Shown: piece by piece, positions 18,285 through 22,408 of the stretch | How the letters are laid out: each line of letters begins with the position of its first letter | Numbering within the stretch: position 1 is the first letter of the stretch | IMG/VR virus record: IMGVR_UViG_2869970738_000007 | Direction: 5' to 3' (one strand) | DNA length: 22,408 nt | Origin: a virus | Taxonomy: Duplodnaviria; Heunggongvirae; Uroviricota; Caudoviricetes | Notes under the pieces: model-generated | What the model was told of the DNA's origin: nothing | Database searches by the model: none | What the model saw: the letters and a program-made list of their open reading frames with translations, nothing else | Made by a program: the position numbers and the translations under genes

Positions 18285-18650
18285 TTACAGTCCGATGATG
18301 TCGTCCTCTCTGCCACTACCTCCGGACACCTCCGGCAGCGTCGGATCCGGCATATCACTCGCCGCTTCACGAGCAGACTTTTGTCGATGGCATTCGGTAC
18401 AGAGCGTCCAGAGATTCGTCTCCTCATTACCACCACCGAACTGAAGTGCAATTCGGTGATCGAGTTCACTGTCACAGAGGTCAACCACACGACCACAGAG
18501 ACGGCACTGCCCGGTGTCCCTGAGCCAGATATGACGCTTGAGGGAAACACGTGCACTGCCACTGACACGACGCTGTTCACCCTTCAGAATATTCACCCGT
18601 CGGGTATTCAGTGTTTTGATTCTGCTCTGGAGTGTACGAAGCTCAGCCAT
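18285..18650 (-). CDS. Phage HNH endonuclease (packaging-associated)
   Basis: 121 aa, ATG at 18650. HNH-type motif CRLCGRVVDLCDSELDHRIALQFGGGNEETNLWTLCTECH; location next to cos and TerS is typical of HK97-like cos phages. Confidence 0.85.
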   Translation of the reverse strand: MAELRTLQSRIKTLNTRRVNILKGEQRRVSGSARVSLKRHIWLRDTGQCRLCGRVVDLCDSELDHRIALQFGGGNEETNLWTLCTECHRQKSAREAASDMPDPTLPEVSGGSGREDDIIGL

Positions 18651-18691
18651 GTAAAATCCCCGTCATATGGCAATCAGTAAAGGAAATAAAT

Positions 18692-18892
18692 ATGTCATCG
18701 AAAAACCGTACCCGCAGAACCACAACCCGCAATATCCGTTTCCCCAATCACATGATTGAACAGATCAACATCGCCCTTGAGCATAAAGGGTCCGGTAACT
18801 TTTCAGCGTGGGTTATTGAAGCCTGCAGGAGAAGGCTGGCAACAGATGCAACGCATCTGCGCCCGGCCAGCATGACAAATAACGAGAAATGA
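18692..18892 (+). CDS. Small phage protein, YlcI/YnfO-like (DUF3950-type, family recalled from memory)
   Basis: ATG at 18692 with AAGGAAA upstream; 66-aa translation MSSKNRTRRTTTRNIRFPNHMIEQINIALEHKGSGNFSAWVIEACRRRL.... Divergent from the HNH gene with only 41 bp between the two starts. Confidence 0.5.
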   Translation: MSSKNRTRRTTTRNIRFPNHMIEQINIALEHKGSGNFSAWVIEACRRRLATDATHLRPASMTNNEK

Positions 18893-19023: not shown

Positions 19024-19350
19024 TCAGGGTGCGGAAGGACTAAAGATAAACGTTTTCTTCACGCCTTTACACGGCCTGTCCTTCTCAAATCGCCATTTTG
19101 CCATCGCCTTTACAACCTGCTCATCAAACAGATGGTGCGGCTCTGAACGAATAAACTCAATTCGGGTGACAGTACCATCAGCACCAATATCAAACCTCAC
19201 ATCAACCCGTCCCTTTATATAATTTGCCGCTGCATAGGCCGGATATTGTGGTAATGCCTTAACCAACTGTCGGGGCATATCTGTTTTATGTTGCGTACAG
19301 CCCATAACCAGAGAAGACAACAAAATAATTAACGGAAGATTTCTTTTCAT
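19024..19350 (-). CDS. Prophage-encoded lipoprotein with a TonB C-terminal-like domain
   Basis: ATG at 19350 with GGGGA six nt upstream. Signal peptide and lipobox MKRNLPLIILLSSLVMGC, Thr at +2. Mature part LPQYPAYAAANYIKGRVDVRFDIGADGTVTRIEFIRSEPHHLFDEQVVKAMAKWRFE aligns by eye to the TonB C-terminal domain (YPA..A...G.V.V.FD...DG.V....S.P..F...V..AM..WR.E). Confidence 0.6.
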   Translation of the reverse strand: MKRNLPLIILLSSLVMGCTQHKTDMPRQLVKALPQYPAYAAANYIKGRVDVRFDIGADGTVTRIEFIRSEPHHLFDEQVVKAMAKWRFEKDRPCKGVKKTFIFSPSAP

Positions 19351-19688
19351 TTTCATTCCCCGCACAGATAAAAATAAGTCTTATTCTAACAATGCCGCCC
19401 TGTCGGTCATCAATCCTCTGCTTAATGGCAACGACAATTATCCGACTTAAATCACAAATCAGACACATGACATAACAGGGCTTGCGAGGTAACACATCGT
19501 CCTGTTTCTTCCACCATCGCACCGGACTGGCGACTATGAGGGGACAACGCCGCGCTCCGTTAACGCGGTAAACCCCGGTGTGTATCGTTTTAGATTATCC
19601 CCGCACACTCGCGCAGAGGAGTCTCCCTGTCGGGCTGCGGTCTCTGTTAATGAGGGAATACAGCGACGATACGGCGCATCAGCAAAAC

Positions 19689-20156
19689 TTAGTTCAGGCA
19701 CTGAGTGCGGATATAGTCCTGTGCCCCTTCCAGCTGCTTCTGCATTGTCATCAACCGTTCTCTGAGGATGAAATAATCCCGTTCAGCGGTGTCTGCCAGT
19801 CGGGGGCCGGTTGCATTATCCACGCCGGAGGTGCCGGTGGCTTCACGCACGGTACCGGAGCAGGTGGCGTTGATCCGCAGGCGCTTACGACCAGCGGCAA
19901 CATCAGCACGCAGAGTTTCATTTTCAGCTCTCGCATCGGCTAATTCCCTCGAGTATCTGGCATCAAGTGCAGCGACATCACGCTGGCGTATCTGCATATC
20001 AGTAATTGTCGCGTTCGCCAGCTCCAGCTCACTGGCTTTTTTATCGCGCTGCTCTTTGTAGATGATGGCGTGAACACGGTAATGATTCAGCCCCAGACTA
20101 AGCGCACCACAGGCCACCAGCAGGGCAATGATGACCACGCACAAAACACGGTTCAT
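19689..20156 (-). CDS. Rz (i-spanin) lysis protein
   Basis: ATG at 20156; translation MNRVLCVVIIALLVACGALSLGLNHYRVHAIIYKEQRDKKASELELANATITDMQIRQRDVAALDARY... is close to lambda Rz. Confidence 0.9.
   Translation of the reverse strand: MNRVLCVVIIALLVACGALSLGLNHYRVHAIIYKEQRDKKASELELANATITDMQIRQRDVAALDARYSRELADARAENETLRADVAAGRKRLRINATCSGTVREATGTSGVDNATGPRLADTAERDYFILRERLMTMQKQLEGAQDYIRTQCLN
19751..19936 (-). CDS. Rz1 (o-spanin) lipoprotein, embedded in the +1 frame of Rz
   Basis: ATG at 19936; translation MRELKMKLCVLMLPLVVSACGSTPPAPVPCVKPPAPPAWIMQPAPDWQTPLNGIIS is a proline-rich lipoprotein close to lambda Rz1. Confidence 0.85.
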   Translation of the reverse strand: MRELKMKLCVLMLPLVVSACGSTPPAPVPCVKPPAPPAWIMQPAPDWQTPLNGIISSSENG

Positions 20157-20157
20157 A

Positions 20158-20271
20158 TCACCACCAACGGATTGCCCAGACCAGAACAGCAATTGCCACA
20201 ATACGAATGGCAAAAGCTGCCGCTCTTGTTAAATCCAGACTGGCTGGCGTCTCCACTTCAATGCCTTTCAT
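20158..20271 (-). CDS. Hypothetical 37-aa hydrophobic peptide immediately upstream of Rz
   Basis: Hand-translated: ATG at 20271-20269 with GAGG nine nt upstream; MKGIEVETPASLDLTRAAAFAIRIVAIAVLVWAIRWW; its stop TGA at 20160-20158 sits one base before the Rz ATG (TGAtATG). Too short to appear in the supplied ORF track. Confidence 0.3.
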   Translation of the reverse strand: MKGIEVETPASLDLTRAAAFAIRIVAIAVLVWAIRWW

Positions 20272-20491
20272 AATGGACAACCTCAGAAAGAATCTTTTAT
20301 ACTTCCTCACAGGGAAAGCACCTCCCTCACCATAATTTCTCCCTTGCCTTACTCAAGGTCAGAAAACACAAAACCCCGCTTGCTGCCAACAAACGGGGTT
20401 TTTACTTTTATTCACTTAGGTTTTGCCAGTTCACAGGACTTCGTGTTATCCGCCCGCGTGAGCAAGCGTCATTTTTCAGCAAAATATTCTG

Positions 20492-21025
20492 CTACCTGTC
20501 GATACCCCAGCACGCCAGCGCGCTCTCCTGGTCACGCCGCGATACCTGCCCGTAACAGTTATTTGAGCGGTTCCGACAGTCCCTGCCGCCGTCATATATC
20601 CAGCGACGAATTTCAGCACATGCACCTTTCCGGTCTCCGGCGTTCAGTTTCCGGTAAAACGTTGAGCTGAAACACTTACCGGGGCCAATGTTGTACGGAC
20701 AGAATGACGCGATCCCCGATTTCTGAGGTTCGGTCAGCGGCACTTTGATGTTTTTCTCCACCCATGCCAGCGCCTTATCACGTTCAATGGCGTTAACCTG
20801 GTCGCATTTCTCCTTCGACAACTTCATGCCCGGGACGACAGGTTTACCATCCACCAGAATGGCACCGCGGCAGATGGTCCAGATACCCGCGCCATCACGG
20901 TATGCCGTGGTGTGGTTACCTTCCTTTTCATCCAGAAACTGGTCGAGAATGTCAGGCGCAGGCGCACCAGCGGCAATCAGCGCCAGAACGGCAGCCGACA
21001 GGCCGTATCTGATTTTTGCGTTCAT
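20492..21025 (-). CDS. Phage endolysin, lysozyme type with an N-terminal signal-arrest-release-like segment
   Basis: ATG at 21025; N-terminus MNAKIRYGLSAAVLALIAAGAPAP is Gly/Ala-rich and weakly hydrophobic; lysozyme-like body ...EKEGNHTTAYRDGAGIWTICRGA.... Confidence 0.9.
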   Translation of the reverse strand: MNAKIRYGLSAAVLALIAAGAPAPDILDQFLDEKEGNHTTAYRDGAGIWTICRGAILVDGKPVVPGMKLSKEKCDQVNAIERDKALAWVEKNIKVPLTEPQKSGIASFCPYNIGPGKCFSSTFYRKLNAGDRKGACAEIRRWIYDGGRDCRNRSNNCYGQVSRRDQESALACWGIDR

Positions 21026-21713: not shown

Positions 21714-21775
21714 TGAATTACTCTCCCCGTGCAGCCTTACGACGGTCCTCTCTGATTTTGAAATACAGGTTAGTC

Positions 21776-22077
21776 TGAAGTGGCACACTGAATTTGGCCA
21801 CCTGAACAGAGGTGATATGCTCACCTCAGAACAACACAGGTGCTCCAATGAAAAAAAGAAATTTTAGCGCAGAGTTTAAACGCGAATCCGCTCAACTGGT
21901 TGTTGACCAGAAATACACGGTGGCAGATGCCGCCAAAGCTATGGATGTTGGCCTTTCCACAATGACAAGATGGGTCAAACAACTGCGTGATGAGCGTCAG
22001 GGCAAAACACCAAAAGCCTCTCCGATAACACCAGAACAAATCGAAATACGTAAGCTGAGGAAAAAGCTACAACGCAT
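21776..22077 (+). mobile_element. IS911-like (IS3 family) left-end fragment, truncated by IS1 copy 4
   Basis: Begins TGAAGTGGCACACTGAATTTGGCC at 21776 (IS3-family TG terminus); contains the 5' part of orfA; ends abruptly at the IS1 terminal repeat. Confidence 0.75.
21848..22077 (+). pseudogene. IS911-like transposase OrfA, truncated
   Basis: ATG at 21848; translation [76 protein letters not shown], then reads into IS1. Confidence 0.7.
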
Positions 22078-22408
22078 GGTGATGCTGCCAACTTACTGAT
22101 TTAGTGTATGATGGTGTTTTTGAGGTGCTCCAGTGGCTTCTGTTTCTATCAGCTGTCCCTCCTGTTCAGCTACTGACGGGGTGGTGCGTAACGGCAAAAG
22201 CACTGCCGGACATCAGCGCTATCTCTGCTCTCACTGCCGTAAAACATGGCAACTGCAGTTCACTTACACCGCTTCTCAACCCGGTACGCACCAGAAAATT
22301 ATTGATATGGCCATGAATGGCGTTGGATGCCGGGCAACTGCACGCATTATGGGCGTTAGCCTCAACACGATTTTACGTCACTTAAAAAACTCAGGCCGCA
22401 GTCGGTAA
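22078..22408 (+). mobile_element. IS1 (copy 4), left part only; continues past the window end
   Basis: Terminal repeat GGTGATGCTGCCAACTTACTGAT begins at 22078; internal sequence matches copies 1 and 3. Confidence 0.9.
22133..22408 (+). CDS. insA: IS1 InsA, GTG start
   Basis: Translation (M)[42 protein letters not shown]...; 91 aa, ends at the window edge. Confidence 0.9.

Follow-up and report, generated by a model that had tools for sequence, protein, structure and literature searches.

The 335-bp interval between the endolysin gene R and the spanin gene Rz at positions 20157..20491 of the virus record IMGVR_UViG_2869970738_000007 (Caudoviricetes; 22,408 nucleotides, the whole of which is hereafter called the window) forms a compact gene module that is found again at different places in phage genomes. 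It combines a terminator-like hairpin with a gene for a small membrane protein of 37 or 50 aa, a member of what we call family A. That this interval represents a real, conserved gene module appears to us nearly certain. The great majority of its copies lie in lysis cassettes, where they follow endolysin genes of unrelated families and precede spanin genes. Because the association is seen with three endolysin families that are confirmed and with inner-membrane spanins (i-spanins) of two Pfam families, a role related to lysis is proposed. Our preferred reading, namely that the small protein assists lysis from the inner membrane as an accessory part of the cassette, is an evenly balanced proposition.

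The small open reading frame (ORF) of the interval is a real gene, and its in-frame codon substitution ratios show that it is under purifying selection. Across 16 divergent genes, pN/pS amounts to 0.41 in frame, whereas the two shifted frames give 1.15 and 1.62, and five synonymous versus three conservative replacement changes are found across 37 codons within the gap type of the window. The annotated short form (20158..20271, minus strand; 37 aa, MKGIEVETPASLDLTRAAAFAIRIVAIAVLVWAIRWW), which begins at an internal ATG and is called by PGAP in E. coli relatives as the hypothetical protein WP_000675931.1, matches the PHROG profile phrog_4493 of unknown function (E 5.5e-16) as well as phrog_1115 (E 2.5e-5) and phrog_3246 (E 5.1e-5); no match was obtained in Pfam or NCBIfam. 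Profile searches retrieved 298 clusters at 90% identity, and among the matches listed every named one is called “hypothetical”. At 50% identity there are 35 clusters among 1.84 billion representatives, which characterizes the family as narrow but genuine, and the motifs GLE..AP, A.AFAIR and RWW are kept across these 35 clusters. Full-length members comprise 55-60 aa and follow the pattern M.KYKR.LLRLTMKNGLE.APVT.EIS.A.AFAI(R/K)...LYG.A(R/K)LI.AIRWW. A preliminary description of this DNA had singled out the ORF as a candidate membrane peptide, and it proves to be a genuine and conserved small membrane-protein gene.

The gene of the window probably starts at GTG 20310 (MRKYKRFFLRLSI...), 13 codons ahead of the annotated ATG 20271, because the upstream extension is conserved as protein in all lineages. 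Residues N-terminal of the annotated Met are retained in the homologues from Silvimonas, Klebsiella, Salmonella and metagenomes, gene callers place the start at the longer N-terminus in many lineages, and distant homologues match the same PHROG profiles across positions 1-54 of 56, with the extension included. For the N-terminal extension alone, pN/pS is 0.37 in frame versus 0.66 and 3.04 in the shifted frames. In the long form (20158..20310, minus strand; 50 aa, MRKYKRFFLRLSIMKGIEVETPASLDLTRAAAFAIRIVAIAVLVWAIRWW), a basic amphipathic helix at the N-terminus is joined by a short acidic linker to a single C-terminal membrane helix, which ends in Arg-Trp-Trp. The peptide was originally described as one of 37 aa with a polar N-terminus; given the conserved extension in the homologues, this part of the description probably has to give way to a protein of 50 aa with a basic N-terminal helix. 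AlphaFold2, run on a 33-sequence alignment, places a first helix at residues 3-19 (predicted local distance difference test, pLDDT, 60-69), a break at Glu-Thr-Pro and a second helix at residues 22-49, with pLDDT values above 90 over residues 31-50. Relative to full-length members, a deletion of 7-11 residues has shortened the hydrophobic segment of the window copy.

The internal Met is present in nearly all homologues, the distant homologue P0170 being without it, and a GAGG located 9 nt upstream of the internal ATG is kept in the enterobacterial and Silvimonas copies. The conservation of both makes two starts possible, and by analogy with the dual-start holins ATG 20271 may be an alternative start. 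In the holin/antiholin pairs S107/S105 of lambda and S71/S68 of phage 21 the longer form adds N-terminal positive charge. The pair GTG 20310 and ATG 20271 would similarly specify forms of 50 and 37 aa, with five basic residues in the extension. Unlike the dual-start holins, the small protein has a single helix, an RWW end instead of a charged tail and a usual position downstream of the endolysin. Holin membership in general does not fit a protein with one predicted membrane helix that ends in ...AIRWW and carries no charged tail; no holin family was matched in Pfam, NCBIfam or PHROGs, and a true holin (phrog_920) lies beside the family A homologue of the metagenomic phage L181. The same applies to the spanin class, as only 2-3 residues extend beyond the C-terminal helix, a lipobox is absent, and genuine Rz and Rz1 genes follow.

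The second constituent of the module is the hairpin, which belongs to the small gene rather than to the endolysin. The ORFs of all divergent homologues inspected manually have a GC-rich hairpin 40-75 nt upstream, preceded by an A-run and followed by a T-run, and it is present whichever gene lies ahead, be it an endolysin, capsid, baseplate spike or tail-fibre gene. A pattern search detected it in 82 of the 87 family A loci. The five loci missed include copies with one base changed in the CCCC run; besides these five, only 5'-truncated relics among the copies examined have no preceding hairpin. Three of three distant homologues checked separately (contigs L180, L181 and L182) harbor the hairpin as well. 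We scored the stem variation by folding each hairpin and tabulating its pairs; the 21 distinct stems fold at -9 to -19 kcal/mol, hardly any change is seen in the four outer C-G pairs, and pairs 5-8 each occur with three to four canonical pair types. These compensatory changes document that the structure of the hairpin is under selection. No hairpin is found after the last small ORF, where the next gene follows immediately, and the unit therefore consists of hairpin, leader, small ORF and junction. Rfam yielded nothing at or above the gathering threshold in the gap, and the best sub-threshold matches (rimP leader, 24.8 bits versus 47; ohsC, 18 versus 50) are driven by the terminator. A tandem arrangement of hairpin and small-ORF units, with a near-identical hairpin ahead of each, was observed on the metagenomic contigs L180 and L181 (2423-3410) between the capsid gene and a signal-arrest-release (SAR)-type endolysin gene.

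In the window, the terminator-like hairpin is bidirectional (20360..20410, both strands; terminator scan and folds). Its 15 pairs at 20370-20402 include a CCCCG...CGGGG core (CCCCGTTTGTTGGCAGCAAGCGGGG, 20374-20398) that is enclosed by AAAA/TTTT arms. The plus strand carries a T-run at 20399-20409 and the minus strand a weaker U-run at 20373-20360; the terminator scan assigns the hairpin at 20370-20402 to the minus strand. The leader of about 60 nt (20311..20369, minus strand) contains a strong Shine-Dalgarno sequence (AAGGGAGAA, 20337-20345), the motif ACCTTGNNNAAGGCAAGGGAGAA, which is common to the E. coli and Salmonella modules, and a small hairpin (AGGGA-GGTGCTT-TCCCT, 20311-20327) whose polymorphism is located in the loop. 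An upstream ORF of eight codons (MVREVLSL*; 20307..20333, minus strand) ends with a TGA that shares bases with the GTG at which the 50-aa frame begins (GTGA). Five Salmonella copies (L091, L099-L102) possess the upstream ORF with identical length and overlap, and it is presumably functional. At the opposite end, a single base separates the TGA of the small ORF (20158-20160) from the ATG of Rz (20154-20156). The Trp-Trp-stop codons of the module (TGGTGGTGA or TGGTGGTAG) provide a GGTGG that resembles a Shine-Dalgarno sequence and lies a few bases upstream of the following start codon, and in the window TGGTGGTGA thereby doubles as a Shine-Dalgarno-like sequence for Rz. The arrangement in the preliminary description, i.e. 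a gap of 335 bp with a hairpin, its plus-strand T-run and a small ORF with its own Shine-Dalgarno sequence that stops one base before Rz, was reproduced with all coordinates. The remaining part of the interval is a hypervariable spacer of about 80 bp between the endolysin stop and the hairpin (20411..20491, minus strand), which carries most substitutions among the 14 copies of the same gap type and is far more polymorphic than hairpin, leader or ORF among near-identical copies. This spacer may be a recombination junction; a short palindrome (GCGTTGGCCAACGC) occurs there in some alleles.

The interval had initially been called unusual, a view that did not survive the comparison of 82 RrrQ-type endolysin-Rz junctions (the window, six database records and 75 IMG/VR contigs). 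An insert of 297-1899 bp is present at 81 of the 82 junctions and is hence the rule in this endolysin lineage. The gaps measure 297-298 bp (22 junctions), 335-336 bp (14), 426-492 bp (15), 642 bp (21), 989-993 bp (7) and 1898-1899 bp (2), and the only junction with overlapping endolysin and Rz genes is that of L019. Outside this set, the rrrQ and rzpQ genes of the K-12 prophage Qin also overlap and have no insert between them. The R-Rz slot is occupied by small single-helix ORFs of three families, namely, family A with the window ORF and a longer form of 60 aa, family B (43-44 aa, MSDKLITLAKILCVIVGISFSLMLVALFLS...GLLG) and family C (about 45 aa, C-terminus IRWW). The pN/pS values of families B and C, calculated from few sequences, point in the same direction as those of family A. 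Family B is present at full length in 276 phage records, mostly of Shiga-toxin (Stx) phages, and usually lacks an annotation. One example is the unannotated family B ORF MISDKLITLVKSLCVLVGISFLVMLVAIFFSTAWRVLTLSGLVG between ant and Rz of phage VT2-Sakai (L004); another example is phage TL-2011c (L006, 2058-2355), in which an unannotated family C ORF (MAEKLSTWKYILIWLVFVIMASGYFIGQIRWW) precedes Rz.

The longer gap classes additionally hold an antirepressor gene (ant) and a DNA methylase gene. Wherever a small membrane ORF lies directly before Rz, its stop is located 0-10 nt ahead of the Rz start or overlaps it as GTGA, and this is found in all such gap classes. The 642-bp class has a 5'-truncated family A copy of 28 aa adjoining Rz, and in the 1898/1899-bp class it is the methylase gene that precedes Rz, ending about 17 nt upstream. 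A gap-spanning query of 451 bp is covered to at least 80% in 668 of 5426 complete E. coli genomes. Two explanations for the origin of the insert were rejected. It is not the remnant of a deleted ant gene, given that another hairpin is seen in the ant-type gaps, where the small ORF before Rz is a different one (family B), and the IRWW terminus of families A and C is not a recombination scar of the Rz junction, since RWW is kept where the next gene is not Rz.

The close junction with Rz is at the core of a rival explanation, according to which the ORF only lets ribosomes re-initiate on Rz, or is a mosaic leftover, and encodes an inert peptide. The distance of 0-10 nt between stop codon and Rz start in almost all gap classes would be in line with such a translational bridge or recombination scar, as would the occupation of the same place by unrelated ORF families, the retention of the truncated 28-aa copy beside Rz and the resemblance of TGGTGGTGA to a Shine-Dalgarno sequence. 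An inert peptide is, however, difficult to reconcile with purifying selection at the amino-acid level across genera, with the conservation of the protein where the downstream gene is not Rz and with the three motifs shared by the 35 clusters at 50% identity. We therefore consider this explanation highly improbable.

The distribution of family A provides the evidence for its connection with lysis. The family is present in at least seven enterobacterial genera (Escherichia, Salmonella, Klebsiella, Enterobacter, Citrobacter, Cronobacter and Yersinia), with further homologues in the betaproteobacterium Silvimonas terrae and on metagenomic phage contigs; a search of genome contigs with a narrow exact-pattern filter returned one locus (Silvimonas) and has little bearing on the taxonomic range. 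A check of homologous R-Rz regions, as suggested in the preliminary description, found the ORF kept in this slot of E. coli and Salmonella, and in other genera and metagenomic phages family A mostly occupies other slots. We retrieved 80 IMG/VR loci with the family A profile, 77 of which have a classifiable upstream gene, and in 65 of these 77 an endolysin gene is located directly upstream. The endolysins are of the RrrQ-type GH24 (glycoside hydrolase family 24; 38 loci), GH108 plus PG_binding_3 (23 loci), P21-type GH24 (one locus) and GH19 (one locus) types, complemented by an enzyme with an “NNPGNIR” motif (two loci), which we take to be a muramidase and count among the 65 although Pfam did not confirm it. 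Three glycoside-hydrolase families are accordingly confirmed by Pfam or annotation. The upstream genes of the other loci encode a 112-aa protein of unknown kind (six loci), a baseplate spike (four loci), an Ig-like tail protein before the tail chaperone (one locus) and a Big_2 protein (one locus).

The genes downstream of family A encode Phage_lysis or DUF2514 i-spanins with an embedded lipoprotein, and in GH108 cassettes family B and a lipoprotein of 60-65 aa (PHROG 7528). The gene order in Salmonella is holin, lysozyme, family A ORF and Rz, and in Silvimonas terrae the family A ORF directly follows a Phage_lysozyme gene. The metagenomic phage L181 exhibits the order capsid, A, A', holin (PHROG 920), 51-aa ORF, family C ORF and SAR-type endolysin. 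Several of these loci deserve mention in their own right. The Silvimonas copy, whose protein is 56% identical to that of E. coli, represents a surprising host jump of a family that is otherwise almost wholly enterobacterial; it is part of an isolated mini-cassette amid ordinary chromosomal genes (L089, 2158-3887), which consists of a 97-aa membrane/coiled-coil protein, Phage_lysozyme, the hairpin, the family A gene and a weak PLD-like gene. The E. coli prophages L151 and L119 from IMG/VR (about 774-2022) combine two holin-like genes, a GH108 endolysin, family A, family B and the lipoprotein of PHROG 7528 (60-65 aa, MKRKHWTHR...LVGC...). No Rz-like i-spanin was seen in these two cassettes, and either the spanin is located elsewhere or the small proteins substitute for it. 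In the Salmonella prophage L091, the small RNA (sRNA) STnc100 (1653-1860, plus strand; Rfam, 67.8 bits) is located a short distance ahead of the holin gene in the family A cassette.

An alternative to a lysis function is that the module is a moron that serves the lysogen or the infection, for example by superinfection exclusion or a change of the host membrane, and that it rides in permissive slots of the late operon, the endolysin-spanin junction being the commonest of them. The insertion of the module between genes that adjoin or overlap in relatives (rrrQ/rzpQ of Qin) would be compatible with this explanation, and so would its presence in tail, baseplate and cargo regions and the clear non-lysis genes ant and DNA methylase in the R-Rz slot. 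In the sense of Juhala and Hendrix, the module indeed shares the character of an insert, because the flanking genes overlap in Qin and L019. Classical lambdoid morons such as bor and lom have a promoter upstream and a terminator downstream. Like them, the module is extra DNA between genes that adjoin in relatives and is mosaic and mobile; unlike them, it has its terminator upstream, shows no promoter and is translationally fused to the next gene at its 3' end, with no terminator before Rz. A scan of the window and eight modules revealed no recognizable forward promoter for the small gene, which together with the upstream terminator makes expression in the lysogen unlikely. PADLOC defence profiles gave no match at E <= 0.1 for families A, B and C and the associated lipoprotein. 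Moreover, 65 of 77 loci right behind endolysins and the vicinity of a holin in a distant phage are hard to explain by permissiveness alone, and we regard the moron explanation as rather improbable. The toxin-like moron named in the preliminary description suffers from the same absence of a forward promoter and from a terminator that is upstream rather than downstream of the gene; its other candidate, a lysis-timing or spanin-associated membrane peptide, fits the observed tie to lysis cassettes.

According to the preferred reading, i.e. an accessory inner-membrane protein of the lysis cassette, the small gene would be promoterless and transcribed only together with the late lysis genes by a Q-modified polymerase that ignores the hairpin. 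In lambdoid phages, terminators are read through by the Q-modified polymerase. With such read-through the hairpin would silence the small gene in the lysogen, yet not in lytic growth, thus keeping it quiet in the prophage state. The small protein would reside in the inner membrane with its basic N-terminus in the cytoplasm and Arg-Trp-Trp at the periplasmic interface, where it might tune the triggering of the holin, the release of the tethered endolysin or the action of the spanin. The endolysin R of the window (20492..21025, minus strand; 177 aa) is an RrrQ-type lysozyme, annotated as “lysozyme” or rrrQ in E. coli relatives, and its hydrophobic N-terminus, which is rich in Gly and Ala, suggests that it is a SAR endolysin. 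RrrQ-like endolysins of Stx phages have been predicted as SAR endolysins (PMC8136144). Ribosomes that finish the small ORF may re-initiate on Rz by translational coupling, and the direct overlap of R and Rz in the insert-free Qin prophage is in favor of such a coupling.

Several observations weigh against an accessory lysis function. The literature searched contains no experiment or expression data on the small gene. A minority of the homologues is located elsewhere than in lysis cassettes, some between the baseplate spike and the sheath-initiator gene (Klebsiella, Enterobacter), others after Salmonella tail-fibre genes, between tail tube and chaperone, or after the tape-measure gene; these positions imply that the protein cannot be strictly reliant on a lysis partner, and insertion may simply be tolerated at the endolysin-spanin junction. 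A strong terminator ahead of the gene is awkward in phages without antitermination. Qin and L019 do without the module, which must hence be dispensable, and the deletion in the window copy leaves its membrane helix broken by an Arg.

The interval also invites an interpretation as a type I toxin-antitoxin-like unit, in which the hydrophobic peptide is a membrane toxin whose translation is blocked in the lysogen by a cis-antisense RNA of about 100 nt. This antisense RNA (20310..20410, plus strand; hypothetical and deduced from geometry only) would originate from a predicted sigma-70 promoter-like motif (TGGACA-18-TATACT; 20274..20303, plus strand), end at the hairpin T-run near 20403-20410 and cover both Shine-Dalgarno sequences and the upstream ORF. 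Its geometry is that of SymR/symE or sok/mok/hok. The motif recurs at the homologous place in eight of eight divergent modules and in 59 of 59 distinct enterobacterial contexts, its -10 element being TATACT or TATAAT and its spacer measuring 18 nt in 58 of the 59. All 59 contexts have TAT as the Tyr codon, indels are located outside the -35/-10 interval, and the pS value there is 0.41 versus 0.69. A hairpin with a good antisense-side T-run is present in most modules examined, and the predicted antisense RNA folds at -26.4 kcal/mol (z -3.35 versus shuffled sequences). The motif has to be read with caution, however, for its bases also encode the conserved Tyr-Lys and Leu-Thr-Met and include the GAGG before the internal ATG, so that it may be a by-product of coding. 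The promoter scan of the region returned one site versus 1.2 expected by chance. In the distant homologues, the motif is absent from L180 (Tyr codon TAC, no fitting -35), weak in L181 and good in L182, yet hairpin and protein motif persist in all three.

Size and hydrophobicity of the peptide suit a type I toxin, which should be hydrophobic and shorter than 60 aa; the small protein has 37 or 50 aa and a C-terminal hydrophobic helix. Like the products of hok/mok/sok and hokW-sokW, it is a membrane-helix peptide of about 50 aa with a possible coupling to an upstream ORF and a possible antisense RNA over the ribosome-binding region. A precedent for a prophage-borne type I toxin that helps phage release is HokW-SokW of the Stx2 prophage Sp5 (PMC8621323). 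Unlike the hok loci, the small gene shows no Hok-family similarity (no Pfam match), it is part of a module inside the late operon, its putative antisense promoter is not universal, and a toxin promoter of its own, as expected for type I systems, was found neither in the window nor in the eight modules. Rfam has no matching family. The type I interpretation is unlikely in our estimate, and it would be compatible with an accessory lysis function if the antisense RNA served as a safety catch.

Published data from O157 Sakai bear on antisense RNAs at this locus to a limited extent. At the one R-Rz junction checked (Sp10, ant-type gap) the table of Tree 2014 contains no peak of Hfq crosslinking and cDNA analysis (Hfq-CRAC), a weak negative, as no Sakai prophage with the exact gap type of the window was located; Sp4 has no R-Rz junction. 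The known prophage sRNAs AgvB, AsxR and PasA-D are positioned upstream of the holin or in structural operons and thus outside the gap. The same holds true for two RNAs of the Sakai Hfq-CRAC table, i.e. EcOnc52 in an esterase gene and EcOnc11 just 3' of Rz. EcOnc11 (Sp10, 1946819-1946867, minus strand; L097) is an abundant Hfq-bound RNA located about 74 nt past the Rz stop on the strand opposite to the late operon. It has homologues in Sp12 (EcOnc10) and Sp9 (EcOnc12), and we found no characterization of it in the literature.

Gram-negative phages lyse their hosts with holin, endolysin and spanin and a few regulators such as antiholins and the releasin of Mu. A parallel in gene order is LysA of phage P2, a non-essential membrane protein that reportedly affects lysis timing and whose gene lies between the endolysin gene K and the Rz-like lysB. 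The position of a membrane-protein gene between endolysin and i-spanin genes is the point of likeness. LysA comprises about 141 aa with several membrane segments; it is not known to have an upstream hairpin module, and we expect no sequence relationship to the small protein. The releasin gp25 of Mu is reportedly a small membrane protein of the lysis cassette as well, which works with a SAR endolysin and is larger, with a periplasmic domain. In contrast to gp25, family A also accompanies GH108 and GH19 endolysins. Families A and C have the upstream hairpin and the C-terminal Arg-Trp-Trp in common. It is conceivable, and we put this forward as a tentative and somewhat doubtful idea, that these hairpin-led small membrane proteins with an RWW tail represent a widespread and unrecognized class of lysis-cassette proteins that would influence the timing or mode of endolysin or spanin action and would be silenced by terminator and cis-antisense RNA, i.e. 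a hybrid of lysis regulator and type I system.

The copy of the module in the window resides in a damaged prophage. The genes for R, the small protein, Rz (i-spanin; 19689..20156, minus strand; “lysis protein” in relatives) and the embedded Rz1 (19751..19936, minus strand) are intact, and all lysis genes are encoded on the minus strand. The homology of the window to its best E. coli matches breaks off at 21775-21778, which is within the holin gene of the relative L088, and only about 60 nt of the holin 3' end remain. The adjacent DNA contains ORFs of an IS3-family orfA fragment (21812-22099) and of IS1 insA (22133-22408). The prophage has lost its holin and is lysis-defective, and the late promoter region presumably disappeared together with it. 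Because insertion sequence (IS) elements destroyed the holin and presumably the late promoter region, the window copy is probably a silent relic that is not expressed as a lysis cassette.

Further features of the window are located beyond Rz. A 113-aa lipoprotein-like ORF (19024-19365, minus strand), called “TonB family protein” in an E. coli relative, lies downstream of Rz, a position that in lambda is that of bor. A YlcI/YnfO-family ORF (18632-18892, plus strand) is found on the opposite strand. A full-length match to the Hfq-binding sRNA RseX (3500-3589, minus strand; Rfam RF01401, 97.7 bits, E 1e-12) suggests that host DNA next to the prophage is part of the window, as RseX is a chromosomal sRNA.

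The small ORF is already contained in RefSeq and PHROGs as a hypothetical protein, and the gene call itself is not new. Our literature searches (peptide, WP accession, PHROG identifiers, ECs_1966 and R-Rz gap) returned no functional study of family A. Nor did they return a report on three small-ORF families sharing the R-Rz slot of Stx and related phages, on the probable start 13 codons earlier, on the conserved upstream hairpin or on the association with endolysins of several unrelated families. If the module were a neutral passenger, the finding would shrink to an annotation correction (50 versus 37 aa). As a genetic element, it illustrates an unusual way of inserting into an operon without breaking it, with a terminator upstream, a possible internal antisense promoter and a ribosome-binding sequence of its own to offer to the gene that follows. 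Family A sits in the lysis cassettes of Stx phages and other enterobacterial prophages. If it is true that these small proteins tune the timing of lysis, they would affect burst size and, because the release of Shiga toxin depends on phage lysis, also the timing of toxin release.

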